From Promethearchaeota archaeon (lineage in GTDB: Archaea; Asgardarchaeota; Lokiarchaeia; Sigyniarchaeales; SOKP01), in the NCBI GenBank assembly GCA_019057795.1, contig JAHLWS010000078.1, positions 1-64,000 on the forward strand: DNA of 64,000 bases, written 5' to 3'. The translations under genes and the position numbers were made by a program. The notes under the pieces are model-generated. The model had not been told where the DNA came from, ran no database searches, and saw only the letters and a list, made by a program, of their open reading frames with translations. Shown piece by piece: positions 1 through 22,823 of this stretch; within the stretch, counting starts at the first letter, position 1; each line of letters starts with the position of its first letter.

Positions 1-115
1 ACATTACATAAGCTCCAATATAAACATAAACCCAGTTTTTATTAAGATTCTTCCCGAAAATTTTGATTTTTTCTTTCAAGTTCCTTTTATTTGAATTTTC
101 TTTCAATTCATTCAC
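1..115 (-). CDS. Partial ORF running off the left edge, possible membrane protein (viral or host unclear)
   Basis: Manual translation from GTG at 115: VNELKENSNKRNLKEKIKIFGKNLNKNWVYVYIGAYVM..., open to the window edge, purine-rich AGGAAG upstream. Confidence 0.4.
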   Translation of the reverse strand, partial: MNELKENSNKRNLKEKIKIFGKNLNKNWVYVYIGAYVM

Positions 116-304
116 TTCCTTTTTTTTAATTTAAAATTTAATAAGCCAAGATAATAATTGCCTAAATTTTATTTAACTTTTATGACACTTCTGATATTTG
201 AAAAATTAGCAAAAAAATCGATTTAAACACACAAAAAAAGCTAAATTTCAATCGTTAAAAAAAAAGTTATGTAATAAGTAACACATTAGGAAAAAAAATT
301 TTTA

Positions 305-562
305 TTAAAGATATAAGGTTTTAAAATCGATATTATTTTTATCCAAATTTTCTTTTTTTTCTGATTCCGTACCCATTAATTCTCGAATATTGTTAACGAG
401 TTCGGTTATGCTTTCAGCATTTCTCGTTATATCTTCGCTAAGAGTTTCGTAGTTTTTATTAATACTTTTCATAGATCTGTTATATTTCCTTCTAACCAAT
501 TTAGCTAATTTGTAAGCTCTAGCTGTTATTATTTCTATCCTTTTAATCCTATCTTCAATCAT
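305..562 (-). CDS. Viral hypothetical coiled-coil protein
   Basis: 85-aa ORF overlapping the upstream gene, heptad-like pattern, end of late operon. Confidence 0.55.
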   Translation of the reverse strand: MIEDRIKRIEIITARAYKLAKLVRRKYNRSMKSINKNYETLSEDITRNAESITELVNNIRELMGTESEKKENLDKNNIDFKTLYL

Positions 563-767
563 CGTTATTCTGTTTTCTGAAACTGCCGATCATGTCTCCC
601 CAAAGCCATACCAAACCTGCAGCATTTCCCCCAGTTAAGAGCATCCCTAAAGTAAGAAATCCGTTTAATATACACATAAACATAATTCTCCCCATCGGAA
701 TTTCCCAACTCTTGTTAATATATAAACTTTTCTTAGCCAATTTATTCCATTTTTCTACTAATCCCAT
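555..767 (-). CDS. Small viral membrane protein (holin-like position)
   Basis: 70 aa with hydrophobic stretch IMFMCILNGFLTLGMLLTGGNAAGLVWLWG, directly after the tail fibre gene. Confidence 0.5.
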   Translation of the reverse strand: MGLVEKWNKLAKKSLYINKSWEIPMGRIMFMCILNGFLTLGMLLTGGNAAGLVWLWGDMIGSFRKQNNDD

Positions 768-784
768 TGTTATTTTTATCCCTT

Positions 785-3700
785 TTAATCGTAATAATAT
801 TCTACTCGAACATAACTTATATCTAAATCTTGAGCATTAGTACAAGTACATTGGAAAAAGAAAAGTATCTTTTTATACGTTCCCCCAATTGTCTCATCGG
901 CAAAATTCCAAATAACTTCTGCTGGATCTCTGTAAAGTCCACTGGTCGCTATTATATTAAAATTATTGTATGCCGTCCATCCAACTAATCGTACAAGTAG
1001 AATGAGGTCAGTTGCGTCTGCATCTCGCAAACCTATATTGAGTCTTGTAATCACTAAATTTTTATCACCAATTATATGATCTAAAGGAACTGCGTAATTT
1101 AATTGCATATCAGCACTACTCTTATTTGATAACTTGTAATTTGAGTATAGCATATTATCGAAATTATCCATACCTTCAAGAATACAATTTTTCCACCTTT
1201 TATTTGCTATGCCAATAGCCATATCAGCTTCGTAATCTGCAACGAGAAGAACAGTTCCAGTCCCAGTTCCAAGATTAGATATTTTTGCATCGTTTCCGTG
1301 TATTACATTAGCACCAAGCATAGTTCCAGTTGAAGTAGCATCTATTTTAATACCGTATTGAGTACCAGCTCCAGCATTGTTGTTGTTAGATATATTATTA
1401 CCATCAATTATATTATAATGAGAATCTTCTAAATCAATTGTTCCATAACTATTAGCATGATTAGATTGATTGTTACAACAATTATTCCCACTAATAGTAC
1501 AATAATCTGTGTTCCTAATTGCTATTGCTCTTGTAAAAAGCCCAGTTGCATCGTTATTAGTAAAATTACCAGTTACAACAGTTCTATGAGAATCATCGTC
1601 AATAGTTATTAACTGAATACTATCTGTCACGTGATTACCTGATACTAAACTATCTGGGGATGTGTCTAATTTTATTCCAGATAGACAATTACTTATTGTA
1701 TTGTTTATAACTTTACTATTAGAACCTATCATAGCTATACCCCATTGAGTATAACTTACATCACATTCTATAACCAAACAATTATCAGATTGAATAAATA
1801 TACCCCATCCTCCCCTATCTCCATTTCCTACAACTGTTATGTTTCTGGCAACACATTTATTATTATTAGCTTCAGTAATCATTACTACTCCTTGCCAATC
1901 TCCTACATCTGAACAATCAACTTTAAAATCTTCTAAAACGCAAGATTTACAATTAGTAACAAAAAAAGCTGCTCTATTTCCATTACAATCTATAACACTT
2001 GTATCACCACTACCTTTAATTTTTATTAATGTATTTGGATTATCATTAACTGTTAAAGTTGCTGATAGTGTATGAGTGCCTGGTAATAATTTAACAACTC
2101 CTGAGCCAATAGATTCAATCTCATCTATTGCTGTTTGAATGTTATCGCCAGGCGATACACCAATTATATTGTCTCCATATAGGTTTCTTAATATATCCCA
2201 TCTGGTTGTTGTATCGTTCCAAACGATCCAATCACCGATTTCGTACCATCTTTCTGGAGTGTTACCATCTACTGCATGATAACCATCGGTAGAAACGATG
2301 TAATAAAAGCCCTTTCCAGTTGCAGGATATGCGTTAGCAGGATTCCAAGTTCCACTATATATTACAGCTCCAGTTAAAGATACAAACACATCTCTACAAG
2401 TTTGTTTTGAAGGAGCAGTTGATACATTTAATCCGCCAGTCCAAGTATCTGGATCGTAAACTACATTAGATATGTTTTCCCATCTAAGAGCATTACCGTT
2501 TTCTGTTGGGGCACCTAATCCCGTTATTTTATGAGAGTTCATAGCAACTGCTCCGTCTGGAACAACCCATTTATTTAATTTAAATGCATCTATTTCTGAT
2601 TCAGTATAATACCTATCATCGTGATCTACTGAATCAGCATCGTGATGAGTATTAATTAAAGAATCTATTGCATTATCTATCGATTGACCGTTAACTAACT
2701 CGGCATTTATGATACCTTCTACCATAGCATTGGTATATTGGGTTATTGAACAGTTTATAGTTCTATTTGCTGCGATAGTACCGCCACCAGTTAAGCCAGT
2801 TCCTGCAGTAATCGAAATTGCTGAATGATCCTTGTGTCTATTGGCAACGTTATGATTACTAATTAATGTATCTATCCCATTATCAATACTTTGCCCATCT
2901 ACTAACTCGGCAGTTATAATATATTCTACTCCGCCAGTTTTCCCGCCAATAGAATCCCAAGTAACAATTGCGCCTTCCCCTAAAGGAGTGGAAATTATTC
3001 TATCTGTGTGAGCTTTACGTGCTAGATAAGCGGATTCTTTAATTATATTTGCGAGTTTTTCTTGAATTGGTGATTTTCCTAAACCACAAGATATAACAGT
3101 TTTTATCCCATCTATTCCGAATTTACTCCTTTGAATAGTTCTAATTGGATAATCTGCAGAATCAACTGTAGGTCTCACCATCGTTAAACCAACAGTTTTC
3201 CCAACCGATAAATCAGCATTAACTCCATTTAAACTTAATTTAATCGATGGTCTTTTAACTTTCCATATCGCTAATTGAGTATCTGCTACTTCTTGAGCAT
3301 CTCCTATAGTCATTATGCTCTCGTCATAAATCTGTTTAACCATTTCAGAATTGACGCTAGTGTCTTCTGCATAAGTGTAAATACCTAACGAAGAACTTCC
3401 AAAAACTTCTACTTTATAGTAAAAATTACAATCATCTTGATATTCCCAATCCCAACCGTAATTTGCTTGAGTTAGATCAACCTCAGAATCTATCATATCA
3501 GTTTCCGAAGATATAATTATTCTATTATTAACGTAATCTTCCCACCAGTGTGTACCTTCCAAATCACACACTGCTGTTAGTACTTCTAAGCCGTTAGTTC
3601 CCCTAAACCATCGTGCCATGTATTTTGAAAGTGTTGTTTGAGTGTGAATTTCTATTCCTATTTTTGCTGAAAGTTCTGTTAATACTTTATTAGTACTTTC

Positions 3701-4846
3701 CCCTATTTTAAATGAATCTCCTACAGCAACACCAGTAGCAGTCCAATCATCGACACCTTCACAAGATAACCATGAATCTGCAGAATCTGTTATCTTTTTC
3801 ATAATCGGCGATATATCTGCTGTATTATAATAAATCTTTACTTTTAGAAAATCCCAAGCACAAGATATTTGCCCATCTCCTTCGCCAGCTGGTTGGATAA
3901 CCCCATCAAATTTAATCCTTATGCCTTTTAAACTAGTATAATTAGCCCCTGTTTTATTGAAGTATTTTAATAACTCTGAATTAGATTCTTGAATCGATAT
4001 AAGGGGAGAATCGATCCAGCCACTATCGAATCCATCGGGATAATCCTCTGGGTAATGTACTATCTTATAAATCGATTTTATGGTCTTATAAGAACCGTCT
4101 TTATTGATTTGTAAATCAACTCTCCCATATGTCCAATCTGCATTAAATAATTCTAATGCTGTACGAAGATTATATTCTATTTCAATTTTTTGTAAATATA
4201 CTGTATCAGAAATAGATTCACCATCCACAGTTAGCCCTATAGTAGCATTATAATAAGAAGCAGATTCAATATCATGGTAATATAACCACTCTCCATCGTT
4301 TTTAGTTAAAGTTCCTTCATAAGTTCCTGCTTTACCTGAACCGTTTTGACAAACATCTGCAGATGCATCCCATTCAATACAAACACTATTATGTGTGTTA
4401 TCTACTATTAAAAATCCTTTATTCTGTTCGCCACTATTCCAATAATCTGCATCCCATGTAAAAGGATTACTATCTAAGTCTTCTAATACAAGATTAGTGC
4501 CAGCAGGTACACTAGAAACCTTTCCTTGTTCTAAGATGTAATTATTGCTAAAACTTTCCCATTCTAATTTTACTCCTAATCCAGAAATCGTTAACGTTAG
4601 TTGATCGTGTTTAAACGATTTTCCCGTAAGAAATCCCCTAAATAATACATTAGAAGAATCATCTTCCACTTTCATGGGAATAAAATCGTAATCTTTCCAA
4701 GTAGCATATAAAGCTCCTTCGAAATCCCTTATAACAACTATAACATTACCAATATTATCTAATCGTGGATTTGGTACGGGATATGTTATTATATCGGTTA
4801 TTTCTGTCCATGAACCATTCTTGTCGTGATCGTGATACACTTTCAT
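785..4846 (-). CDS. Baseplate hub/tail-fibre fusion with right-handed beta-helix (pectin-lyase/NosD-like) receptor-binding region
   Basis: Hub-like N-terminal ~600 aa; internal repeat AELVDGQSIDNGID/AELVNGQSIDNAID; fibre motif HDDRYYTESEID; GDNIQTAIDE followed by N/G-rich beta-helix repeats. Confidence 0.8.
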   Translation of the reverse strand: MKVYHDHDKNGSWTEITDIITYPVPNPRLDNIGNVIVVIRDFEGALYATWKDYDFIPMKVEDDSSNVLFRGFLTGKSFKHDQLTLTISGLGVKLEWESFSNNYILEQGKVSSVPAGTNLVLEDLDSNPFTWDADYWNSGEQNKGFLIVDNTHNSVCIEWDASADVCQNGSGKAGTYEGTLTKNDGEWLYYHDIESASYYNATIGLTVDGESISDTVYLQKIEIEYNLRTALELFNADWTYGRVDLQINKDGSYKTIKSIYKIVHYPEDYPDGFDSGWIDSPLISIQESNSELLKYFNKTGANYTSLKGIRIKFDGVIQPAGEGDGQISCAWDFLKVKIYYNTADISPIMKKITDSADSWLSCEGVDDWTATGVAVGDSFKIGESTNKVLTELSAKIGIEIHTQTTLSKYMARWFRGTNGLEVLTAVCDLEGTHWWEDYVNNRIIISSETDMIDSEVDLTQANYGWDWEYQDDCNFYYKVEVFGSSSLGIYTYAEDTSVNSEMVKQIYDESIMTIGDAQEVADTQLAIWKVKRPSIKLSLNGVNADLSVGKTVGLTMVRPTVDSADYPIRTIQRSKFGIDGIKTVISCGLGKSPIQEKLANIIKESAYLARKAHTDRIISTPLGEGAIVTWDSIGGKTGGVEYIITAELVDGQSIDNGIDTLISNHNVANRHKDHSAISITAGTGLTGGGTIAANRTINCSITQYTNAMVEGIINAELVNGQSIDNAIDSLINTHHDADSVDHDDRYYTESEIDAFKLNKWVVPDGAVAMNSHKITGLGAPTENGNALRWENISNVVYDPDTWTGGLNVSTAPSKQTCRDVFVSLTGAVIYSGTWNPANAYPATGKGFYYIVSTDGYHAVDGNTPERWYEIGDWIVWNDTTTRWDILRNLYGDNIIGVSPGDNIQTAIDEIESIGSGVVKLLPGTHTLSATLTVNDNPNTLIKIKGSGDTSVIDCNGNRAAFFVTNCKSCVLEDFKVDCSDVGDWQGVVMITEANNNKCVARNITVVGNGDRGGWGIFIQSDNCLVIECDVSYTQWGIAMIGSNSKVINNTISNCLSGIKLDTSPDSLVSGNHVTDSIQLITIDDDSHRTVVTGNFTNNDATGLFTRAIAIRNTDYCTISGNNCCNNQSNHANSYGTIDLEDSHYNIIDGNNISNNNNAGAGTQYGIKIDATSTGTMLGANVIHGNDAKISNLGTGTGTVLLVADYEADMAIGIANKRWKNCILEGMDNFDNMLYSNYKLSNKSSADMQLNYAVPLDHIIGDKNLVITRLNIGLRDADATDLILLVRLVGWTAYNNFNIIATSGLYRDPAEVIWNFADETIGGTYKKILFFFQCTCTNAQDLDISYVRVEYYYD

Positions 4847-4852
4847 TTTAAA

Positions 4853-5323
4853 TCACCATAAAAAACTCATACTACCCAAAAGAGTACCTATACTATTTAA
4901 CGCAAGCATAGATTCTCTCATTTCTTTTTCCATTTCTTCTTTACCTGCTGCAGCCGCACTAATAGCAATGCCAGTTTGAACTAAATTAGCCACTCCAATA
5001 GCAAAAGAAATCCAGTCTTGCGTAGCCATAGCTTTTGCAGTGAGTAGAGGTTGTAATACTGCAATACCAGATATTCCCATTTGAATTAAAGCAGCAAACT
5101 GAGTAGAAATAGTTAAACCACTAGCTTTAGCAACAAGCTGAGTTGCTGTCCATCCTGCCCTTGCTATCCCAAGAACTTCGTTAAAAGATGCTTTTGACTC
5201 TTTATCGATAGTTTCGATTATTTCTTTTTGTTTTGCATATATTTGTTTAGCTCTTTGCTCTATCTCGTCTAAAGACTTATGTCCTTTACTAGTATCAATA
5301 TCCATATCAAATATAAAAGCCAA
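4853..5323 (-). CDS. Putative very short tape-measure protein
   Basis: Sits between tail tube and hub; TMP-like N-terminus (DIDTSKGHKSLDEI); Ala/Gly-rich amphipathic and hydrophobic helices. Confidence 0.5.
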   Translation of the reverse strand: MAFIFDMDIDTSKGHKSLDEIEQRAKQIYAKQKEIIETIDKESKASFNEVLGIARAGWTATQLVAKASGLTISTQFAALIQMGISGIAVLQPLLTAKAMATQDWISFAIGVANLVQTGIAISAAAAGKEEMEKEMRESMLALNSIGTLLGSMSFLW

Positions 5324-6328
5324 TTATGTCACCACTCCTTTCCAGTGGTTCGCAAATATCTCAGCAGATTCATTAGCAAAGTTATTAGTGCCATTTACCT
5401 TCTCAGCAGTTAACGTTATGATTATTTCATAGTGACCTTCGTTTTTAGCACCTGTTTTTTTAACACTATTTATGTGGCAGTTTTCAAATATATGAGAAAC
5501 GTAATTACTCATATCTCCTTTCCAAAACTTAATTTCTAAGTCTTTTATATTTCTGTCAACGTAATCGTTCCATTGAAGGTTTGTTTTGAGTATTGCGTGA
5601 AGAGTTATAATTACTGGTCTATATTTGTAAGTATGAACTGTTTGGGTTGTTCCTAATGCGCTTGAAGTTATCTTATGATCTTGAATTATCGAAAAATTAG
5701 CTATTACAACTTCGTTAAAAGCCACATCTCCTACTCCCTTATCCCAAATAACTTGTGGACGTCCTTCAAAAGTGTTTGTAATCGTACTAGTATCACCAGA
5801 TCCTGATGGAAATGGATCTGTCGTGAGATTTGGATTATCCCCTATATCTTCTATTTTTTGCCAAGCAAATTCGCAATCTACCATTAAAGGATTTCCACTT
5901 ACTCCACTTACAGTTACGCCAATACAATAACAACCTACTGCCTGAATATTACTTGGATTAGTGCCTTCGAGTTCTTCTAATCTAATTGTCAGTGGATAAG
6001 TCATCCCTTCAGTTAAAGGAGAAATAGCCACAGGAGGTCCTACTACAGGCGATTTAAGAATCCAACTTAGATATTGCGCAGTTATTGGGTTAAAAGCATG
6101 TGAAAAAGTTGGAAATTTCTTTTCTAAGTCTGTTAAAGTGGGAGTGCGTGAATTATAAACGTAAAATGGTGAAACTTGATTATTTGTAAAAGGGGAATTC
6201 CATTTTTTACATAACTCATCGTATTCTCCAAATTCATAACTTAAACTATCCACAGCAACAATTATTGCAGTTCCTGGCACAGATTCATAAGCATATACAA
6301 ATTTGCTTGATTTGTTTGCATTTACCAT
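5324..6328 (-). CDS. Putative major tail (tube) protein
   Basis: 334 aa, beta-rich, N-terminal YAYESVPGT like tail-tube E-x-x-x-G-T starts; follows neck genes. Confidence 0.6.
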   Translation of the reverse strand: MVNANKSSKFVYAYESVPGTAIIVAVDSLSYEFGEYDELCKKWNSPFTNNQVSPFYVYNSRTPTLTDLEKKFPTFSHAFNPITAQYLSWILKSPVVGPPVAISPLTEGMTYPLTIRLEELEGTNPSNIQAVGCYCIGVTVSGVSGNPLMVDCEFAWQKIEDIGDNPNLTTDPFPSGSGDTSTITNTFEGRPQVIWDKGVGDVAFNEVVIANFSIIQDHKITSSALGTTQTVHTYKYRPVIITLHAILKTNLQWNDYVDRNIKDLEIKFWKGDMSNYVSHIFENCHINSVKKTGAKNEGHYEIIITLTAEKVNGTNNFANESAEIFANHWKGVVT

Positions 6329-6393
6329 TTATCTAATTATTTATTTAATTTATTTTAATTATTTTAATTTTCTATTTAATCTTTTAATACATC

Positions 6394-6807
6394 TTAACTA
6401 GTCGTGAATTTAACGTCTAAAATTAACTGATTATCCCATTTACCACTCTTATAATTAATACTACCTTCGTTACAACTAACTAATTCGATGTGAATTAACG
6501 TACTTGGTTTAGTATAACCAGCTATCGTTAATCTTTTATTAAATTTGTTAATTCCGTCTATAAGATTGTTTAGTGTCGTTATAAGTAAAATTTCCGATGG
6601 TTGACTCAGTAGTATTTTAAATCTTTTAATATACACGTTACAATAAGTTTCTATTAACTCTCCCTGCTTAACTAATATTTTCTGAAAAGTTGCATCGATA
6701 ATGCTGTCAGTTTTTTTACCGTGTTCTACTACATGCTCAACTGTGCTGCCAGTACATACTGCTCCTATAAAAGTTCTAATATAATCTAATTCTGTCGCAT
6801 CTGCCAT
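6394..6807 (-). CDS. Putative tail terminator/completion protein
   Basis: 137 aa, position just before the tail tube gene. Confidence 0.45.
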   Translation of the reverse strand: MADATELDYIRTFIGAVCTGSTVEHVVEHGKKTDSIIDATFQKILVKQGELIETYCNVYIKRFKILLSQPSEILLITTLNNLIDGINKFNKRLTIAGYTKPSTLIHIELVSCNEGSINYKSGKWDNQLILDVKFTTS

Positions 6808-6813
6808 CTTTTA

Positions 6814-7350
6814 TCACTTTTTCCACTTAAACCTACTTGAAATCATTCTTCCCGCTTTACCTACATTTCCCAAATACATAGCTTTAGCTTTAGCGTAATT
6901 AAGTTCTAATCTTTCTTTAGCATATTCGAGAAATTTTTCCCAAAAGAAACCTATTGCACGGGGATCGTTCAATATAATAGGTCCATGATACCCACCGTAA
7001 TATGCGTAATCCTTTTGATTAACATGCCTTACAGTAGCCATTGTCATCTTATTTACAAACTCGGCATAAGATATATGCGTACCTAACTTTAATTTTAAAA
7101 GCGTATTTCTTACAAAGGAAGAACTAAGTTCTAGTTTTAAATCTTTGCGCAATTTTCCCGTTCTTTTAGCCACTTTTGAATCGATCCATAACTCTAATTC
7201 CATTATAGTATCGTCTAAAGTTCTATTTAAGATGTTAACGATTAACTGTTTAACTTGAAGATAATTTAACTTAGTCTGTTTACCCGCAATATAAGTAATA
7301 TCAGTTTTATCAAACCCAACTTCGTAATGGGTTTTTGTTGCGAAAGACAT
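6814..7350 (-). CDS. Putative neck/tail-completion protein (HK97 gp10-like)
   Basis: Basic protein with KRTGKLRKDL and YAEFVN, resembling the xTGxLR..YAxxVE signature of this family. Confidence 0.6.
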   Translation of the reverse strand: MSFATKTHYEVGFDKTDITYIAGKQTKLNYLQVKQLIVNILNRTLDDTIMELELWIDSKVAKRTGKLRKDLKLELSSSFVRNTLLKLKLGTHISYAEFVNKMTMATVRHVNQKDYAYYGGYHGPIILNDPRAIGFFWEKFLEYAKERLELNYAKAKAMYLGNVGKAGRMISSRFKWKK

Positions 7351-7353
7351 CGT

Positions 7354-7719
7354 TTAATCTAAAAACCAACTAGTTACGTTTTTAATTAACTTATAATCGT
7401 ACTTCGTGGCAGTATCAGACAATATACCTAAAACTACATCGTCAATTACTTTAACTGGTTGCTCTCCTTCGCTACCAAAGCCAAACTCGATTATTAGATT
7501 GTTCATTAATCGTTTTGCCATCAATAAAGTTGCTGAAATAGCAAAATCGGGGATCGTACCACTATAACTCGTTTTTTTTATTTTATTTACGTTCCTTTCC
7601 GCTAAAGATATGTTAGCTTCGACCACACCGTCGTCAAGTCCGAACTGCGTGTCGTAATTTATATCTCCGTGATACGCTTCTAAGTTTGCGACAGTTATGT
7701 ATTCATAATCACTTGCCAT
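7354..7719 (-). CDS. Head-tail adaptor/connector protein
   Basis: 121 aa helical; YITVANL start, AERNVN and IPDFAISATL typical of gp6/gp15-like adaptors; follows MCP. Confidence 0.65.
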   Translation of the reverse strand: MASDYEYITVANLEAYHGDINYDTQFGLDDGVVEANISLAERNVNKIKKTSYSGTIPDFAISATLLMAKRLMNNLIIEFGFGSEGEQPVKVIDDVVLGILSDTATKYDYKLIKNVTSWFLD

Positions 7720-7723
7720 CGTT

Positions 7724-7852
7724 TTATTCCTTTTCTAATTCTTTTATAATCTTTCTCAATAAAGATGCTATTTTCTTTAGTTCTTGGAATACAAGAAATT
7801 CTTTCTTATGTAATGGGTAACCTTGAAAATCATCTTCCTTAATTTTAGCCAT
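7724..7852 (-). CDS. Small viral protein (42 aa, below ORF-track cutoff)
   Basis: MAKIKEDDFQGYPLHKKEFLVFQELKKIASLLRKIIKELEKE; stop lies 4 nt before the adaptor start. Confidence 0.55.
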   Translation of the reverse strand: MAKIKEDDFQGYPLHKKEFLVFQELKKIASLLRKIIKELEKE

Positions 7853-7988
7853 AATAATATCTCTTATTAAATTTAATTTGAATAAAATACGTCAATTTTT
7901 AGTTATTTATTTAATTGTTTTGTAATTTTCTAATTTACTACTTCAAAAAAATATTAAGAAAAGTGCACACTCGCACTTATCTTTAAGT

Positions 7989-8897
7989 TTACCAACTACA
8001 TCCATCTAATCGTGCAATTCCTTTAATATACTCTTCAGCAGTTTCTTCCCATAAAGGATCGGATAAGAAAGCCATATAAATTTCATAGTCTACGAAGTAT
8101 GCGTGTTTTTCATTAGAGTAGAATGCATCTACTTTAAGATCACTCATTCCAAAATGAATTTTGGAAAGATCAACTAAGTAACAATTGAAATCTGCTTTTG
8201 TTGCTCCTTCATGTACAAAAGGGCTAAAGATTATAGGAATACCAATAGTGGATTTTATCCATTCTGAAACTCCGACAGATGTATTTGCTATAACTTCGGC
8301 AATCATCGGTCTAACAATCGATGGAGCCAGAAGTGCGAAAGGTCCGTAGAACTTATCGGCAATTAACTCGTCCATTTTAGTAATTATATCTGCTCTTAAG
8401 TTTGCTGTGGTGCTCCAAGTTGCTGTTCTTGCTGCTTGTCCGCTCATTTCTGGGCGATTTAGCGTTCCAGCTGTAGCATTTGGAAAATCTTCTAAACCAT
8501 ACATAGTTACTCTTGTTGAAGAACCTTCAATAAAGTATTTTTCAATACCATTCTTGACGATACTCATAGCATCTCTTATATGGTTCGCAACATTCTTAGG
8601 ATCGGCAGCGTAATCAACTCTATCAATTCGAAGTCTTTTAGAAAGGCAGACAAAGTCTATGTCTTGCATTAATTTACTAGCTTCTTGTTCTGGCGCACTA
8701 AATCTGCGATCTGCTTGAACATCTTGATAAGGATCGCTAATTGGTCTAGTTACGTGTTGTTTTCCATAACCAAATTCTAAAACATCTATATTTCCCAATA
8801 AGGTATCGGGAGATGCAGAATAAGTAGAAAGCTCAGTAGCCATAATTTGCGAAATCGTTTTTGCAAACGAAGTGTCAAAATCGTTATTTGTAGGCAT
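7989..8897 (-). CDS. Major capsid protein, HK97 fold (encapsulin/DUF2184-like)
   Basis: ~302 aa from ATG 8897 (MPTNNDF); YGLEDFP, ATWST and KFYGPFALLAP resemble encapsulin-like MCPs; position after decoration gene. Confidence 0.75.
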   Translation of the reverse strand: MPTNNDFDTSFAKTISQIMATELSTYSASPDTLLGNIDVLEFGYGKQHVTRPISDPYQDVQADRRFSAPEQEASKLMQDIDFVCLSKRLRIDRVDYAADPKNVANHIRDAMSIVKNGIEKYFIEGSSTRVTMYGLEDFPNATAGTLNRPEMSGQAARTATWSTTANLRADIITKMDELIADKFYGPFALLAPSIVRPMIAEVIANTSVGVSEWIKSTIGIPIIFSPFVHEGATKADFNCYLVDLSKIHFGMSDLKVDAFYSNEKHAYFVDYEIYMAFLSDPLWEETAEEYIKGIARLDGCSW

Positions 8898-8898
8898 T

Positions 8899-9486
8899 TT
8901 AACACGCCACCACGTAGGCACATATGAGTAAAGGTCCAGGTTCTTCGTCTACATAGTAATACAACGATCTTAGGAACACTCTATTATGAATAGTAGAACC
9001 TGCAACACCGTTAACACCAACTACTTGATTAACAGCTAAGTCAAAAGCATCTCCACTAGCATCAGCTAAGTCTGCTTCCACAGCAATCATCCATTCCCCA
9101 TCTATCGTTCCAGATACACACATAGGAGTATCGGCAGGAACATTAGCACTAGCATCGTCAATTCTGATGTTCCTCATTTCTACTCCGAGATTTAAGTGCA
9201 ATGGAAGAACTGGGATAAGATCACCACTTCCGTAAGCAATTCCATTATTGGCTATTTGCTTAGGATCGAACTCGGCAATAGCATAAACCATAGCAGAACT
9301 TGAACCAGCTTCTGTTGCAGTAGCTTCTCCGCCAGCTCCAGTACCACGTATAACTCCCATACCAGGTTTTATATTGGCTGAAGTAGTTTTAAGCCATCGA
9401 ACATTTGGATTACTATATGGAGACATTCCCGCAATAAATCGTTTTACGTCGCATACAATCTTCTTTGTTTCTCTAACAGTTACCAT
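8899..9486 (-). CDS. Putative capsid decoration/cement protein
   Basis: 195 aa Gly/Ala-rich, IKPGMGVIRG motif, directly upstream of MCP. Confidence 0.55.
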   Translation of the reverse strand: MVTVRETKKIVCDVKRFIAGMSPYSNPNVRWLKTTSANIKPGMGVIRGTGAGGEATATEAGSSSAMVYAIAEFDPKQIANNGIAYGSGDLIPVLPLHLNLGVEMRNIRIDDASANVPADTPMCVSGTIDGEWMIAVEADLADASGDAFDLAVNQVVGVNGVAGSTIHNRVFLRSLYYYVDEEPGPLLICAYVVAC

Positions 9487-9564
9487 AAATTTTCACTCTT
9501 ATTTTATTATTTCGGTAGTATCCTTTAAGATACGTTTATACACCGTTTATTTCATACGTCAATT

Positions 9565-9927
9565 TTACTTTTTGGTTGTACTTTTCTTAAATACTTCGAT
9601 AGGACTGTAAGATGCCGAGAATAAAATTCCCTTAGGTAAATTCTTATTAACTTTACCAAAAGTAGGTGCATCAATATCCACTGGTTTAGGAACTACTGGT
9701 TTGTTTTTCTTTTTTACAGTTTTAGTTGCTTCAGGCATGTTATCTGCCAAAAAGTCTAATCTGTCAAATTGTTCCTCTAGTGTCAATCCTTTTAGTTTTT
9801 CTTTATCTATTTTAGTTATCTTTATAAGAAAATTGACAGATTTTTGTAATCTATTATCTAAAACTTCTGTCTCTTCTTCTTCTTCAATTTCTTCTTCTTC
9901 TTCATTCTGATCTTCGTTGTCTGGCAA
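9565..9927 (-). CDS. Putative capsid scaffolding protein
   Basis: Probable TTG start at 9927 with a GGTGA SD upstream; acidic N-terminus, helical core, basic tail; lies between portal and capsid genes. Confidence 0.5.
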   Translation of the reverse strand: MPDNEDQNEEEEEIEEEEETEVLDNRLQKSVNFLIKITKIDKEKLKGLTLEEQFDRLDFLADNMPEATKTVKKKNKPVVPKPVDIDAPTFGKVNKNLPKGILFSASYSPIEVFKKSTTKK

Positions 9928-11074
9928 GATTATTTTCACCACGTGGGTTTTGAGGAAAACCTTCTGAATCATTTTCTGGTTCTTCTGGTTTATCCTTTTC
10001 TTTTAAAGCTGTTAATTTGTTATCTTTTTGTAATCCTAAATATCGGTTAATCAAGATTACGATTTGTTCAGGCGGAACTAACTTATCTAAAGCCATTCTG
10101 ATTTGTAGAACACCGTTCATTTGAGTTGCGATATTATACTCTGCAGGTTCATTAAATTTAACCTTTTCTTTTGCTCCTAACTTTATAAGAATGGATATAA
10201 TTGATGGTAATAACTCGTCTTGTAATTCTTTGATATGAGCATACCAATTTGCTGTTGCTGTATCACTTGCTGCTAAAACTCCCGTAGGATCACCATACAA
10301 TTGTAATCTATTTAAACTAGATTCACGGGTTATGTATGTATCGCCATACTCTAACATGTTAATGGGATCGTAAGCGTTTTTCATGGGAGAAATATAACTT
10401 AAATCGTCTTCCGAATCAATAGTTATAGCATCGTCCTTAGTAGGAGCATCTAAAGCTGATTCTGCTTTTTGATAACTCTCAGCATCCAAACCTTTAACTT
10501 TAAGCACTAAATTAGCCAGACCTTGAAAAAAGGCATATTTTGAATATTCTGACCATATCTTAAAACTTTGGTTTGTAACGTCTATCAAGTTTAATAGCTT
10601 AGACAAACCACGTTCTCCTGCTAATCCATCTGCTGTTCTTAATAAGAAAAAATTCTCATCTCTACCACTGATTCTAGTGCCAGTTCCTTGCATAACGTTA
10701 GGATTGTTGTAAATCTTTATTGCTGTACAATCTCCAGTTTTTTCGTCAAATTCGGACATAACAAAACCTATGCCCCCAACTTTCAAATTCCATGCTTGTA
10801 CATTACCATCATCGTCAAAGATAATAGCAGATATACCAAAGAGATCTCTATATTTAATAGCTTTTTCTAATTCTAACTTTCTGTCGTAATCTAAATCAAA
10901 ATCTTCGAATCCGTTATGAAACATGGCTTCTATTGGTTTATTGATTATAGCCTTTGCTCCTGGTACGTGTACGTAAACATCCCATAAATCTTCAGCAGTA
11001 ACTGAATCGCCAACTTTACGGTTACTAGTTCTAGTGCCACTACAAATATCAGAAATCGTTTTATACTGTGTCAT
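9902..11074 (-). CDS. Portal protein (DUF1073-like)
   Basis: AKAIINKPIEAM, RDLFGISAII, GLSKL and LYGDPTGVLAASDTATANWYAHI match DUF1073-type portal motifs; follows terminase. Confidence 0.8.
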   Translation of the reverse strand: MTQYKTISDICSGTRTSNRKVGDSVTAEDLWDVYVHVPGAKAIINKPIEAMFHNGFEDFDLDYDRKLELEKAIKYRDLFGISAIIFDDDGNVQAWNLKVGGIGFVMSEFDEKTGDCTAIKIYNNPNVMQGTGTRISGRDENFFLLRTADGLAGERGLSKLLNLIDVTNQSFKIWSEYSKYAFFQGLANLVLKVKGLDAESYQKAESALDAPTKDDAITIDSEDDLSYISPMKNAYDPINMLEYGDTYITRESSLNRLQLYGDPTGVLAASDTATANWYAHIKELQDELLPSIISILIKLGAKEKVKFNEPAEYNIATQMNGVLQIRMALDKLVPPEQIVILINRYLGLQKDNKLTALKEKDKPEEPENDSEGFPQNPRGENNLARQRRSE

Positions 11075-11076
11075 TT

Positions 11077-12660
11077 TTACCAAATACTTTTTCTATATAT
11101 GTGAAATGTTCTTCGACGCATCTTTTCTAATTCTGTGAATCCCATTGCTAATGCGTCAATAGCATCGAGTTTCTTACAATTTGGGAATGTTAAAATCTCC
11201 CAAATTAGTTCACTTCTTTTTTCTTTCTTTCGTAAACTATTCATAAACCTTATAGTACCGTTTATAATCGGTACTTCTAAGGACATAATACGTTCTTGCT
11301 TAGCTCTTGAATGATGTACTTCTATAATATAAGGTACAAACTCGTAATTACGTGCTTTGGCAATCTCTATCAAGAATTTGCCACCAGCATTCTCTTCAAT
11401 CGCAACAGTTACCTTTATATTTTTGTAAACTTCCCTAATATCTATAAAAGCAGTTTCTATTCTCTTAAGAATGTCATCGAAGTTATATTTTCCACTATCT
11501 TCGTCAAAAACTATGTATTCTCTTTTCTTTTCCTTTTCTTTGCTTTTAAAAATGGTTATTATCGAAGAAAAGGCACTTTCCTTATTGGTCGTCCATGCTG
11601 GGTCCAAAGCAATGCATACTGCTTCGTATTCTGACCATTTCTTTACCTCAGATGCCCAATGGATATTATCTTCTGTCCACACTCCGCCAGTCAGCGGCTG
11701 TGGATTACCTAAGTATTCTGAAGAGTATCTATACTCGCCAATTTCAGCACGTTTCTGAGCTAATTTCTCAAATGTCCACCGTTCAGGACACAGAAGGCTA
11801 CCATCGGCATTAATGGGAGTTCTAAAGAATATTGCGATTTTGTCTTTATAGCTTTTCTGAATGTAATCTAAGAAATCCCCTTCAAACTTACGTGTGCCGC
11901 AGATAATCGTTTTATTTGGGTTTATATTAGCGATAGTACTTTCCCATCGGTTTTCTAAGTCACGTTCTTTGCTAGGATACATTTCAAAACTCTCGTCAAT
12001 TGGATCGTCAATTATAAGGCATAATCCTTGTTTAGAACCATATATATCCGCATGCATTCCCAGAATTGCCTTATCTTTTAAACCATAGCAATCAAATCTA
12101 TTTCCGTCCTTTGTTTTGAAGTGATTAGCAGTATTTTTAACCACTGATTCAGTAGTTATCAAATTATTCCTAAGAAAATAGACGTAGATAAATTCAGCGA
12201 GTTGCTTCCTTCTATCTGTCCAACCTAAGAGCATAACGTCCATTTTTTTGACATCTAAGAGATATTCGATGTACATAACGAGTAGAACAGATTTACCGTG
12301 ATCTCTGGCTACGACAATTAAGGACATGTCGTTTTCTTCCAAATGCTTGAAAAGCTCATATTGCCACTTGTATAAGATTGTATAAGGAAAACAGTTTTTA
12401 ACAAATTCGGTGAAAAGACTCGGCAAAATTCGTACCTTTTCGTTTAGCGGTAAGTTTGCCCTAAGTTTGTTTAACACGTCTTTGTTTTGAATTTGATCGA
12501 GAATCCGTTTCTTAGCTTGTCTTACAGTGTTTTTTTCTTTGACTGAAATTGCCTTTGTAAGGTTGTAAAGGTCTTCGTTGTCGCAGAAAGGGTTCTCACT
12601 TAGCAGGAATCTTACCTGTGCAGTTACTGAAGTACTTGTAATTTTTGTCACGCTTTGCAA
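11077..12660 (-). CDS. terL: Terminase large subunit
   Basis: Walker A VARDHGKS, Walker B LIIDDPI, GTRK, RNase H-like nuclease IALDPA...IEEN...DAIDAL. Confidence 0.92.
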   Translation of the reverse strand: MQSVTKITSTSVTAQVRFLLSENPFCDNEDLYNLTKAISVKEKNTVRQAKKRILDQIQNKDVLNKLRANLPLNEKVRILPSLFTEFVKNCFPYTILYKWQYELFKHLEENDMSLIVVARDHGKSVLLVMYIEYLLDVKKMDVMLLGWTDRRKQLAEFIYVYFLRNNLITTESVVKNTANHFKTKDGNRFDCYGLKDKAILGMHADIYGSKQGLCLIIDDPIDESFEMYPSKERDLENRWESTIANINPNKTIICGTRKFEGDFLDYIQKSYKDKIAIFFRTPINADGSLLCPERWTFEKLAQKRAEIGEYRYSSEYLGNPQPLTGGVWTEDNIHWASEVKKWSEYEAVCIALDPAWTTNKESAFSSIITIFKSKEKEKKREYIVFDEDSGKYNFDDILKRIETAFIDIREVYKNIKVTVAIEENAGGKFLIEIAKARNYEFVPYIIEVHHSRAKQERIMSLEVPIINGTIRFMNSLRKKEKRSELIWEILTFPNCKKLDAIDALAMGFTELEKMRRRTFHIYRKSIW

Positions 12661-13019
12661 ATATTTTTAGAATACTCAATCCATTTTTTTCAATTCCATT
12701 CATATAAATCGACGGGGGATACCTATCGTTTCTATCACTCTCTAAGAATACTAAACCTAATGTGCATTAATTACTTGAAATATATAGTGTGCACACTGAA
12801 TTTACAATCATTAGATAGTTATCACAGTAATGCCGTGATTCATGTGACAAAGCAGAGTAGGGCTTTTTGAGTCTCATTCTATAAGGAGTAGACAGAAAAG
12901 CCCATAAGCTCCCCATGTACGAAGGTTTGAAAAGGTAGAAGAATATGCATCTAATGCATAACTCTATCAATAATTATTAACGTAATTTGTATTTAAATGT
13001 TTACAAAAATTACATTTGC

Positions 13020-13440
13020 ATACATTTGCATACAATAATGAAATAATGAAATGTAGTGTAATAACTTCTTCCCACTCTTCTAGTATATTATGAATGAAAC
13101 TCAGCTAGAATAGTAAAAAGATTACTACACTTTAAATAATGAAATAATGAATGCTCATACTACCCATACAATTCATTTACCTAAATTCCTTAATATTCTT
13201 TACCCAATGCATGTAGAAAAAAAATATACTAGTTTAATTCTAGTAGATAGAGAGTAATCAAAACGTCGGAATTTAGGTATATAATAATGAAATAATGAAA
13301 TAATGTGAAATAACAAAATAACACGTTTTCCAATACATCCTCTATACTAAGTAATTAACTAGTATATTTTTTTTCCATGTGCATTGGGTGAAAAAAAATA
13401 GGTTATTTAGTTATTTCATAATGAAATGATAAAAAATGTA
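13020..13440 (+). ncRNA. Candidate large structured viral ncRNA (may extend 5' to ~12730)
   Basis: Helices 13202-13252/13340-13389, 13178-13189/13268-13279, 13304-13322/13402-13420 and a hairpin at 13052-13131; several non-WC positions are G-U on + strand; AATAATGA repeats in linkers. Confidence 0.55.
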
Positions 13441-13509
13441 AATCCTTATATAAAGATTTTATTAAAGATTATTGAATTGAAATAAATTCAATTTTCTACA
13501 GTGATTAAT

Positions 13510-13818
13510 ATGAAAAAGAATGTAAATTTTAAACTAGATGTAGATTTACACAGTTGGTTAAAACATTATGTTATAACAAATAACACGACAATAACCGAAG
13601 TTTTAACCAAACACATCAAAGAATTGAAAAATCCAAAGACGACAATAACCGAAACTAATAATTCGGAAAAACCAAAAAAAGTATCTAAACCTAAGAAGTC
13701 TAAACCATATAACGAAGACAATCCGCCAGAAGAGCCCATGTACGAAGGAGATTCATTCGATGAGCCATTATCGGTTAAAGATTTTGTTAAAATGGGCTAT
13801 CATAAAAAGAGCGATTAA
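13510..13818 (+). CDS. Ribbon-helix-helix DNA-binding protein (viral regulator)
   Basis: KNVNFKLDVDLHSWLKHYVITNNTTITEVLTKHI strand-helix-helix pattern; TATA-like TTATATAA at ~13446. Confidence 0.7.
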   Translation: MKKNVNFKLDVDLHSWLKHYVITNNTTITEVLTKHIKELKNPKTTITETNNSEKPKKVSKPKKSKPYNEDNPPEEPMYEGDSFDEPLSVKDFVKMGYHKKSD

Positions 13819-13820
13819 AA

Positions 13821-14201
13821 ATGGCACACACTGAATCATCTCGACTTAATCGTGTATATAGTATGTTTATTCCCCCCGATGTCTTTCTTGGTAAACGAGT
13901 AATGACAGAATTTGATACTCTTCATAGCAAACTCCGCCACTGCCATACTTGCGGACGTCCTATGATATGGTCTGAATTTCTCGCAGGAGCTCGAATAGGA
14001 GTGGGTTTTTATACGTTTGGCATGAAAATGCTCAAAGAAATATGGGAAAACGACATCTTCGTGTTAAAATGCTGTCGTTGTTTTCACTCAAACACTCAAA
14101 ACTCCGACGTATTAGATGCAATAACCCACTGGCTTCCAGAATACATGCGAAATCCTGCAGTAACGATGGATGATTTAAATAATGAACTGGAATCAGATTA
14201 A
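13821..14201 (+). CDS. Zn-finger protein (CxxC...W...CCxC)
   Basis: CHTC and CCRC motifs with intervening W residues. Confidence 0.6.
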   Translation: MAHTESSRLNRVYSMFIPPDVFLGKRVMTEFDTLHSKLRHCHTCGRPMIWSEFLAGARIGVGFYTFGMKMLKEIWENDIFVLKCCRCFHSNTQNSDVLDAITHWLPEYMRNPAVTMDDLNNELESD

Positions 14202-14916
14202 ATATATCGATTGTATGGACGAGAAGGAAGGTCTCCCATCCCTGCCTTCCCAGTCCATCGATCTCGCACTCACGGACCCGCCTTGGGGAGTGGACATTCA
14301 TAAAACCATGATAAAAGATCGCAAATACATAAATGGGAGAATCTTAAAGGCTAAACCTGCAGAGCTAATGTACAACGATTCTTGGAGACCTGACTGGAAT
14401 TTAACGTGGTTTAAACAATTAGAACGTATCTGCAAAGCCATTATCTTAGTTGTTGGTCAGAAAAGAGTAATTTGGTGGATACAAAATACAAATCCTATCG
14501 GTATAATCGCCATTACTCATAAAAATGGCTACAGTTCTACCAAAGTATCTCGTTGGAACAAATTTTCACCCTATTTAGTCTACGGAAAACTTAACAAAAG
14601 ATTGTTTTCAAACGTCATAGAATACGTGATTCCGTGGGGATTTTTATCGGATAAGCAATACAAACATCCTAGTCAAAAAGGTATCGAAATTGCCATAAAA
14701 ATACTAAAAGAAACTAAAACTAAATCGATGATCGATCCTTTCGCAGGAAGTGGGAGTTATTTAAAAGCAGCAGACTTACTCGACATCAAATGGATAGGCT
14801 ACGAGATTAACCCAAGCATTTCAAAAGAAGACGTCGACAAGAGATTTAACGACAAGAGAACTTTAGCAGACTTAGGATACGAAGATTACGAAGTAGGAAA
14901 CATGATGTTAATATAA
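14182..14916 (+). CDS. Orphan beta-class N6-A/N4-C DNA methyltransferase
   Basis: Motif IV DPPW precedes HPSQK and motif I DPFAGSGS; no cognate endonuclease nearby. Confidence 0.9.
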   Translation: MNWNQIKYIDCMDEKEGLPSLPSQSIDLALTDPPWGVDIHKTMIKDRKYINGRILKAKPAELMYNDSWRPDWNLTWFKQLERICKAIILVVGQKRVIWWIQNTNPIGIIAITHKNGYSSTKVSRWNKFSPYLVYGKLNKRLFSNVIEYVIPWGFLSDKQYKHPSQKGIEIAIKILKETKTKSMIDPFAGSGSYLKAADLLDIKWIGYEINPSISKEDVDKRFNDKRTLADLGYEDYEVGNMMLI

Positions 14917-14941
14917 ACAAAAATGAGGTGATAAAAGAAAA

Positions 14942-15133
14942 ATGGGTAAAGAAGAAGATAAATATTGTCCATTCAAAGCCGAGTTCCGTATATGCCAAAA
15001 ATGGAAATGTATGGCTTACTTTAAGGAAGACGATGTCTGTCTGTGCAAATTATTAGACTTTGGGAATATAATATTATATTCTTTTGAAAATTTAAGAAAT
15101 AGTATAGATAACTTAGTAACGACAAAAAAGTAA
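14942..15133 (+). CDS. Small Cys-rich viral protein
   Basis: CPF...C...CMAY...C..C pattern; GAGGTGA SD upstream. Confidence 0.6.
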   Translation: MGKEEDKYCPFKAEFRICQKWKCMAYFKEDDVCLCKLLDFGNIILYSFENLRNSIDNLVTTKK

Positions 15134-15170
15134 TAAAAAATCAGTAATAAAAAGAAGTATTTGGGATAAT

Positions 15171-16355
15171 TTACTTATCCCTTAGTAATTTTTCCTTATA
15201 AAGTTCCTTTGCCCATTCTTTTAGCTTATCGATGTCTTTTTCAAAGCTAAGGTTTTGTTTAATCAATAAGTCAATTTGCTCATCTTTTTTAGCCATTGCT
15301 TTAGTTAACTCAACTATTTGCACGTTTGTCGTGTCGTAAATTTCGCAATCAATACAAATCGATTTTTCCACTTCTAACCATTTCTTATAAAAGTAATCGA
15401 TTTTTCTTAACTTAGTGTTATAAGATTCACTCAAATCCTTTGCTTTATGTCCCATCAAATGCTCTTTAAACCATCCCTTAACGTCCTTAGTGTCTTCTAA
15501 TGAACTATCGAAGTATTTTCTTACACAGTGGGTTTTAACGTTTTGAGTTATGCCCAGTTCCTTTCCGATTGCTTTTATCCTATCCAAATAATCGTATTGC
15601 TTAATTCTAGTGCCTTTTTTGGTTTGAAAAATCGTAGTTAAGTCTAATTTAGTCAAATCAACTGTGTAAATCGATTGCATCAAAGTGGTTAACTCGCTTG
15701 GTAAAAACATAAAATTTATTATCACGTTCCACTTTTGACTTACAAATCTTCTTACAAAGTAGTGTTCCTTATACTTTTCAATTTTGTATTTTCCATTAGT
15801 TAACTCTTCTAGTATGTCGTCTACTCTTAAACCTAATAACGCTTGACTTTTCATAAGTAATCTATATTCTGCTCTGTGTAATTTGGCTATAAAAAGTTTT
15901 AAATCTTCACGTTCAAAAATCATCTCGTTCTTATTCAATCCTGCTGAGTAAGATTCAATCCCTTCGGTTATAGACGATCCTCTGGCAGAGTAAAAGGATT
16001 TAATTCTCGATTGCCAGTTATTAACGATAGAAACTTCGTTTTTCCCTAACTTAATCATTTCTGTAAGATAATTCATTAATCTCGCATTTCTGTCGTCTAT
16101 ATGTTCTTCTAACAATTCTGACGGATTTTCACAGCTATAAAAATCGCAGTATTTCTTTAACTCGTTCAAATAGCCAGTAATACTAAACTTTTTAGGATCT
16201 TTACCTTTTTTGGAAAATTTTCTAACTTTAGATTCAATCCATTTCTTAACGTCTTCGTTTCTAAAAACCGAATATCGTTTTTCCCATGCATCAATTTTTT
16301 CCTTTCCGTAAATTTCCCCTAAGTCTGTCTTACTTATGGCTTTAATTTCTTGCAT
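15171..16355 (-). CDS. int: Tyrosine recombinase/integrase
   Basis: Catalytic R (GLRVDD), HCVRK, LMGH and Y (SESYN); C-terminal coiled coil. Confidence 0.9.
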   Translation of the reverse strand: MQEIKAISKTDLGEIYGKEKIDAWEKRYSVFRNEDVKKWIESKVRKFSKKGKDPKKFSITGYLNELKKYCDFYSCENPSELLEEHIDDRNARLMNYLTEMIKLGKNEVSIVNNWQSRIKSFYSARGSSITEGIESYSAGLNKNEMIFEREDLKLFIAKLHRAEYRLLMKSQALLGLRVDDILEELTNGKYKIEKYKEHYFVRRFVSQKWNVIINFMFLPSELTTLMQSIYTVDLTKLDLTTIFQTKKGTRIKQYDYLDRIKAIGKELGITQNVKTHCVRKYFDSSLEDTKDVKGWFKEHLMGHKAKDLSESYNTKLRKIDYFYKKWLEVEKSICIDCEIYDTTNVQIVELTKAMAKKDEQIDLLIKQNLSFEKDIDKLKEWAKELYKEKLLRDK

Positions 16356-16462
16356 TTTTTTTAATCACTCTCATTTTTTTATTTTTTATTTTTTTTTCTA
16401 TTATTTTTTTGTTGGTCGATGTCCTATTTTGAATTGAGTATTTAAATGTAGGCACTCGGAGT

Positions 16463-16488
16463 TTAACCGAATATATACTTTCGGTTAA
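16463..16488. promoter_or_regulatory. 9-8-9 palindrome upstream of the integrase (operator or att core)
   Basis: TTAACCGAA-tatatact-TTCGGTTAA. Confidence 0.5.
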
Positions 16489-16791
16489 TTTGGTATTTTG
16501 GCTTATACTCTCATGTTCTTTAAATAAGCTCATTTTTATTTTCATTATTACTTTCTCACTACAATTAATATAGGGGATAGAGTATTTAAACGTCAGCATG
16601 TAACCCAATAATTTTAAACAATTTTTCAGAAAAAATTTAAGCTGCCTAGAATTTATTAAATTAGGAATAAAATAAAAATTATTGTAAATTCGGTTTGTAC
16701 AGCAGTAATTTTTTATAATAAAAAGTAATCGTGACAATAGCTTTCAATCAATAAATTTCAATAACATATTAATATATATAAAGACAAGGTT

Positions 16792-22550: not shown

Positions 22551-22823
22551 TTATCCTTTCCTTAAATTTTTATTTCTTTGGCTAATTTGATGGCTGTGGA
22601 CCGCACAGGATATACAATAGTACTTTTTTTTGCTAGGAGTTTGAATAATCGTTCCTGTTTTTTTTAGTTCAGCGTACATTCTTCCATCAACTAAAGGGAC
22701 TCTTCTAGTCACCGCTTTGGCTTTACTTCTCGGTACCATTCTCCCGCACTTGGAGCACTGAACTTGACTGTAGTGTCCTTTTCTTGATCCAGTTTTTCCC
22801 CCGCTCTTTCTTTTTTTTGGCAA
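22551..22823 (-). CDS. rps26e: 30S ribosomal protein eS26
   Basis: MPKKRKSGG, CSKCGRMVPRSKA, YCISCAVH. Confidence 0.95.
   Translation of the reverse strand: MPKKRKSGGKTGSRKGHYSQVQCSKCGRMVPRSKAKAVTRRVPLVDGRMYAELKKTGTIIQTPSKKKYYCISCAVHSHQISQRNKNLRKG

Follow-up and report, generated by a model that had tools for sequence, protein, structure and literature searches.

Integrated viruses of Asgard archaea are already known (10.64898/2026.02.13.705702; PMC8813620), and the small Asgard viruses in the literature that have no replication genes are complete or active: such genes are missing from the verdandiviruses (10.1101/2021.07.29.453957) and from NMV2 (10.64898/2026.08.12.739948), and Fylgjavirus has no known replication protein (10.64898/2026.02.13.705702). 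Tailed Asgard viruses with a physically linked host are few. Here we describe a provirus of 18,376 bp with 22 open reading frames (ORFs), most of which lies at the start of a window of 64,000 nucleotides that opens contig C78 (JAHLWS010000078.1) in a promethearchaeotal assembly of 4.95 Mb and 31% GC (GCA_019057795.1). It is probably an intact, temperate and host-replicated siphovirus-type provirus of a Lokiarchaeon, from an apparently undescribed mosaic lineage. Small Asgard viruses without a replication module were known before; the apparent novelties are the lineage, its physical connection with a Loki host, a temperate state with exact ends and clear module swapping.

The provirus carries the genes that define Caudoviricetes, namely a major capsid protein (MCP) of HK97 fold, a terminase large subunit (TerL) with a portal, and tail genes, the tape measure among them by position only. 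The MCP model (AlphaFold2, AF2; pLDDT 74) matches encapsulins and phage capsids in Foldseek with E 1e-13. The head-neck-tail operon of about 12.4 kb that the sequence-only reading of the window had described is a co-oriented minus-strand block at 305-12651. With it the provirus codes for a whole HK97 head, a neck and a tail that is short and non-contractile.

That reading took the verdandiviruses as comparator, which was fair for function but has no BLAST-level homology behind it. Like Verdandiviridae (10.1101/2021.07.29.453957) the provirus is tailed, has a Lokiarchaeia host (Loki/Thor in the family) and a size of ~18-20 kb, lacks replication genes and has a short tape measure; also shared are a PF18906-like tube, small ribbon-helix-helix (RHH) and Zn-finger genes, and the presence of one gene that separates scaffold from MCP. 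Homology was examined with VerdaV5 (20,002 bp with terminal repeats, retrieved from IMG/VR via its published protospacer), one of the six named genomes VerdaV1-6. None of the 22 provirus proteins matches it by tblastn (best E 0.18), so the provirus was not filed under Verdandiviridae; the rule of that paper groups viruses by an MCP BLAST E of 1e-5 to a verdandivirus MCP, and the two MCPs give no match in either direction. They are related at profile level only (hhalign probability 69, 20% identity; hidden Markov model, HMM, E 3e-7). The packaging modules have no BLAST match, and clade HMMs for TerL and portal reach only E 0.005 and 0.03 on VerdaV5 ORFs. All annotated verdandivirus contigs covering the region have a KTSC gene between TerL and portal, whereas in the provirus these two genes are adjacent (11077 / 11074) and KTSC is missing. 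The provirus is also integrated and has an integrase, while VerdaV5 has no PF00589 match. A large group of ~20-kb TerL-KTSC-portal viruses (L036, L089, L090 and L123) shows verdandivirus gene order and VerdaV5-related fibres together with the capsid family of the provirus and a third TerL type, and gene order alone would misfile them. Membership of the provirus in Verdandiviridae, as read from the gene order of this group, was rejected after the comparison with VerdaV5, the one member examined.

Among other named viruses, Lokiarchaeota virus Sköll Meg22_1214 (URC17536.1) has a TerL 30% identical over 565 aa (E 2e-66), but it lies on a 39.9-kb contig with reported replication genes and its TerL, the only protein compared, has 660 aa against 524. 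NMV2/Juurluvirus of Nerearchaeum (10.64898/2026.08.12.739948), compared by description only, is a Lokiarchaeon siphovirus with a 15.7-kb core, no replication genes and an HK97 fold seen only by modelling, and could belong to the same lineage, although it is unintegrated, has no integrase and is accompanied by a helicase-primase satellite. The best model for how the provirus may work is, by analogy, Fylgjavirus 1 of Lokiarchaeum ossiferum B36 (10.64898/2026.02.13.705702), an active 16.1-kb provirus at an intergenic non-tRNA site, with an end inverted repeat, a tyrosine recombinase-like gene and no known replication protein; it differs in being a tailless double jelly-roll virus of another realm. 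HeimV1 of Heimdallarchaeum (PMC8813620), likewise compared by description, is integrated and excising and has an integrase, a methylase and a predicted tail fibre, but measures 30 kb, adjoins a tRNA gene and has a Heimdall host.

Ends, integration site and host

The window opens contig C78 inside the provirus. The terminal 115 bp of contig C1 are identical to window positions 1-115, and across this exact overlap the element continues for 1.66 kb on C1 with four extra genes, in line with the earlier suspicion that its left boundary might be outside the window. The C1 gene ending at 8365 directly adjoins the orthologue of window gene 16792 in 19 same-genus genomes with an empty site, which fixes both ends of the provirus. 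Alignment to the unoccupied spacer in the closest genomes puts the crossovers at ATAAAA, at C1:8483-8488 and window 16718-16723; as the spacer is AT-rich and strain-variable, this position may be a few bases off. The provirus extends from C1:8483 to window 16723, and the earlier estimates of ~16 kb and a right end at 16500 were too low. Insertion was in an AT-rich intergenic spacer and not a tRNA gene, with only a 6-bp duplication, ATAAAA. Tn916-type recombinases are known for such short-core integration at AT-rich sites. Each end has the motif TACAAACC inward of its core, at a distance of 19 nt on the left and 18 nt on the right and in mirror orientation, and the right-end sequence is 92% kept over 61 bp on a contig of genome G134 that bears an 82%-identical integrase.

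Two other att sites were considered and rejected. A site of tRNA type is contradicted by the lack of a tRNA close to the ends and of any non-trivial direct repeat longer than 15 bp that both ends share. The other candidate, a perfect inverted repeat of 9 bp (16463-16488), is situated 230 bp inward of the true end. This repeat (9-bp arms, 8-bp spacer) is located upstream of the integrase gene, is unique in the genome and is a possible operator. The G134 locus (L085:41-3411, on G134:C25) combines the 82%-identical integrase with a methyltransferase (MTase) fragment and the end motif in inverted position, a split grpE-like gene lying in between, and is probably a rearranged remnant. A frameshifted integrase paralogue (44-51%) with no viral genes nearby is found on contig C40 of the host assembly (L062:5514-6508).

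Proteins from metagenome-assembled genomes (MAGs) of Promethearchaeota, including Loki_b31 (94%), share 90-94% identity with the product of gene 16792; this identifies the host as a Loki-type Asgard archaeon. The host gene at window 22551-22823, which by its sequence we take to resemble ribosomal protein S26e, fits an Asgard host. None of the 13 host CRISPR spacers on contig C3 matches the provirus, and a class-wide DNA search for CRISPR matches, with two candidates scored per genome, gave low-complexity matches only. The exact att junction is usable for PCR, and the compact integrase/att pair could serve as a tool for Loki genetics.

Relatives and exchange of modules

The MCP has 18 close homologues, and its expanded profile takes in 106 clusters, none of them virus-named, about ten being on contigs of 18.8-21.7 kb. 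The MCP tree groups the provirus with L003, L004, L063 and L067, all of which have its TerL type, in a clade with support of 96/90. The provirus supplies a Lokiarchaeia host for this widespread capsid family of ~100 unnamed sediment clusters. Neither pattern scans of IMG/VR nor GenBank phages gave relatives beyond TerL matches of 22-25%.

Different parts of the provirus have different relatives. The circular 20-kb genome L090 has an MCP 49% and a portal 38% identical to those of the provirus and a KTSC gene, with unrelated TerL, tube and fibre. A second Loki provirus (L086, at G113:C28 ~132600-149200) resembles ours in neck, tail and fibre (30-45%) and integrase (50%), while its head is of verdandivirus type, with TerL, KTSC, portal and MCP 31-46% identical to VerdaV5; it is otherwise apparently complete, and its ends were looked for and not found. 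The provirus thus shows that these small viruses exchange cassettes for head, terminase, tail, integrase and replication. An integrated virus-like element at L066:2167-19149 (GCA_019058445.1) has an integrase, a TFIIB-like gene and a seemingly incomplete tail module; its TerL is 41% identical to that of the provirus, its portal and MCP are of VerdaV5 type, and one C3 host spacer matches it over only 20/36 nt.

Replication, intactness and rival explanations

Polymerase, primase, helicase, small terminase subunit (TerS) and protease, all reported missing by the sequence-only reading, were not found in Pfam and PHROG scans either. Inspection upstream, where further replication genes might have come to light, gave the four C1 genes, none of which is a recognisable replication gene. 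The control region, 840 bp between terL and the RHH gene, contains six same-strand ATAATGAAAT repeats at 13035-13427 (0.022 copies expected) and a 64-nt inverted repeat (13178-13241 / 13350-13413, 78%). L003, whose early and late genes come in the same order and whose 14.5 kb include no replication gene, has five copies of the 11-mer TTGTACTAACA in place of the six ATAATGAAAT. Repeats and RHH (26% identical) have both diverged between the two viruses while TerL is 76% identical, which suggests, for this one virus pair, that the repeats serve as operators for RHH and perhaps form part of an origin. A 14-bp sequence is present in two exact copies, at 12912-12925 upstream of terL and at 13735-13748 inside the RHH gene.

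We propose that the integrase would bind the mirrored end motifs and excise a circle, and that RHH would keep lysogeny by binding the six repeats, which separate the early unit from the divergently oriented late one. After induction, host MCM, primase and polymerase would copy the circle from at or near the repeat/inverted-repeat region, possibly being loaded through one of the small DNA-binding proteins, and the MTase would shield the viral DNA from restriction. In packaging, a recycled scaffold would make a protease unnecessary, and a helix-turn-helix (HTH)-like extension of TerL may stand in for a separate TerS. This N-terminal extension is a conserved three-helix bundle (pLDDT 85-90); its model has many HTH matches, but at Z 4-5, rmsd 3-3.6, ~50 aligned positions and Foldseek E >1, and no match to a TerS fold rose above chance.

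There is no broken ORF, and the R-H-R-H-Y set of the integrase is complete. In comparison with L003 and L004, the genes for head, neck, tube and MTase have a dN much lower than their dS (dN/dS pairs: TerL 0.18/1.49, MCP 0.24/0.86, MTase 0.16/1.9), which shows purifying selection along the provirus/L003/L004 lineages, not current activity. L003 runs from a C1-type hairpin straight into its own, very distant integrase, as would an excised circle.

Several points weigh against an intact provirus replicated by its host. The inverted repeat of the ends is weak, with an alignment score matched by 8% of AT-rich controls, so that the argument for it is one of symmetry and conservation. Joined provirus ends are absent from the assembly, in which contigs drop rare forms, and the contig of the source run crosses attR unbroken. 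Mimicry of a host origin was rejected, as the ATAATGAAAT motif is absent near the three host cdc6 genes. An unrecognised initiator could be hidden among the small proteins. Furthermore, in the sister virus L063 (19.7-kb contig; TerL 62%, portal 67%; no annotated integrase) the early slot is occupied by an SF3-type helicase (PF19263), and hence the lineage is not always without one; replication genes are an optional cassette in the lineage of the provirus and L063. This natural pair with and without a helicase lets one ask by what means a virus enlists the eukaryote-like replisome of Asgard archaea. It also bears on the possibility that the provirus was recently grounded or is helper-dependent, having lost the cassette and now depending for replication on a co-infecting virus or satellite, or no longer replicating at all, which we regard as unlikely. 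Besides the L063 helicase in the same slot, this would account for the lack of any observed excision and for the related-integrase remnants on G134:C25 and host C40, and NMV2 has been proposed to borrow the helicase-primase of its satellite. Every ORF is intact, however, and ~97%-identical variants are present in other samples of the source study (two runs, one of them lacking the 63-aa gene). The early region of L003 is also helicase-free, at 46-79% protein identity and with dS near saturation, which makes the arrangement a lasting one.

A domesticated gene transfer agent (GTA) that packages random host DNA, which the sequence-only reading had offered beside a streamlined host-dependent Asgard provirus, could likewise have a small structural cluster, no replication genes and a short tail. 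It is nevertheless very improbable: the site is empty in 19 congeners, so the element is not vertically kept at one locus, and the MCP was not found in the other 41 same-genus or 134 family genomes (many incomplete) and, among 399 other genomes of the phylum, only on one unrelated high-GC contig. Integrase and ends are intact, accessory genes turn over fast, and a free circular relative, L090, belongs to the same MCP family. The streamlined-provirus half of that reading stands. An assembly or binning chimera, in which a free virus was joined to a host contig, is scarcely credible. A contig break at a repeat also present on C4 and a MAG contamination of 7.5% could speak for it, but both flanks match one intergenic spacer, contiguous in 19 relatives, and this empty-site synteny largely refutes it; the Logan assembly of the probable source run, not an independent sample, also has virus and host on one contig. 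For the intact, host-replicated provirus a bolder version can be offered tentatively, and we think it somewhat doubtful as a whole: that of an undescribed group of family rank, tailed Lokiarchaeia viruses of 18-22 kb, it is the first member to be anchored in a host and bounded on both sides, with Tn916-type integration at a 6-bp core in AT-rich DNA, a repeat-defined origin fired by host enzymes alone and a terminase with its own DNA-recognition domain.

Gene content and minor features

Eighteen ORFs lie within window 305-16355. The earlier count of five non-structural genes has to be raised to nine clearly non-structural ones and two small genes after the tail fibre. Scaffold, decoration, adaptor, neck, terminator and tape-measure genes were assigned by position and conservation alone.

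Features of the provirus (window coordinates unless C1 is given)
Feature	Position	Strand	Basis or remark
Window part of provirus	1..16723	.	C1/C78 overlap, empty site, core positions
Membrane-protein gene, 5' end, 166 aa, host-derived cargo	1..115, continuing C1 9756-10256	-	
Further C1 genes: winged HTH (wHTH) 112 aa; 72-aa Cys protein; 118-aa protein without assigned role	C1		
attL core	C1:8483-8488		
85-aa coiled-coil protein	305..562	-	weak matches only
70-aa hydrophobic protein, candidate lysis/egress gene	555..767	-	position and hydrophobicity; no family match
Distal tail/baseplate-fibre protein, 1353 aa, C-terminal beta-helix	785..4846	-	PF05048/PF13229
Probable tape-measure protein, 156 aa	4853..5323	-	position after tube gene
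Major tail (tube) protein, 334 aa	5324..6328	-	Atlas 0.98 to PF18906 Phage_tube_2 clusters
Probable tail terminator, 137 aa	6394..6807	-	position; 30-74% kept in relatives
Neck protein, HK97-gp10-like, 178 aa	6814..7350	-	weak lead: faint PF04883 match in L067 orthologue
Probable head-tail adaptor, 121 aa	7354..7719	-	position; conserved in relatives
MCP, HK97 fold, 302 aa	7989..8897	-	AF2 and Foldseek
Probable capsid decoration protein, 195 aa	8899..9486	-	position upstream of MCP; 25-59% kept in relatives
Probable scaffold, 135 aa, acidic	9565..9972	-	position and conservation
Portal	9902..11074	-	PHROG 146 E 1e-4; PF06381 E 0.0015
TerL, 524 aa	11077..12651	-	PHROG 38 E 8e-42
Divergent control region, candidate operator/origin	12661..13500	.	
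RHH (Arc-like) regulator	13501..13818	+	PHROG 3180 E 3e-5
126-aa Cys-rich protein	13821..14201	+	46% in L003; Atlas: unnamed clusters only
N4/N6 DNA MTase, DPPW and FAGSGS motifs	14182..14916	+	PF01555 E 8e-11
63-aa Cys-rich accessory protein	14942..15133	+	missing from close variant, contig joint 14916-15137 in runs X3/X4
Tyrosine integrase, 394 aa	15171..16355	-	PF00589; R177, H276, R279, H303, Y312
Right end: GGTTTGTA motif 18 nt inside ATAAAA core (16718-16723)	16677..16723	.	

In the Atlas clusters nearest to the tube protein the PF18906 family is present on 20-53% of members. The tape-measure candidate has 152-160 aa in all close relatives, and by the rule of 1.5 A per residue its 156 aa in the provirus would correspond to a tail of about 23 nm. 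The fibre is 45% identical to that of the G113 provirus and 54% to that of L003. A phage-like contig of 62% GC in a same-order MAG (L061, G029:C57) has a distant MCP homologue, its host link being uncertain.

Host contig C4 encodes three paralogues of the 166-aa membrane protein, 87, 53 and 29% identical to it. A non-coding hairpin at C1:9558-9680 (L001) ends in a U-run (z -2.4), has a counterpart at L003:239-363 (79% over 127 nt), and may be a terminator or a small structured RNA. The gap between MCP and adaptor (window 7720-7988) may hold an ORF of <50 aa; in L003 a 65-aa gene is located there.

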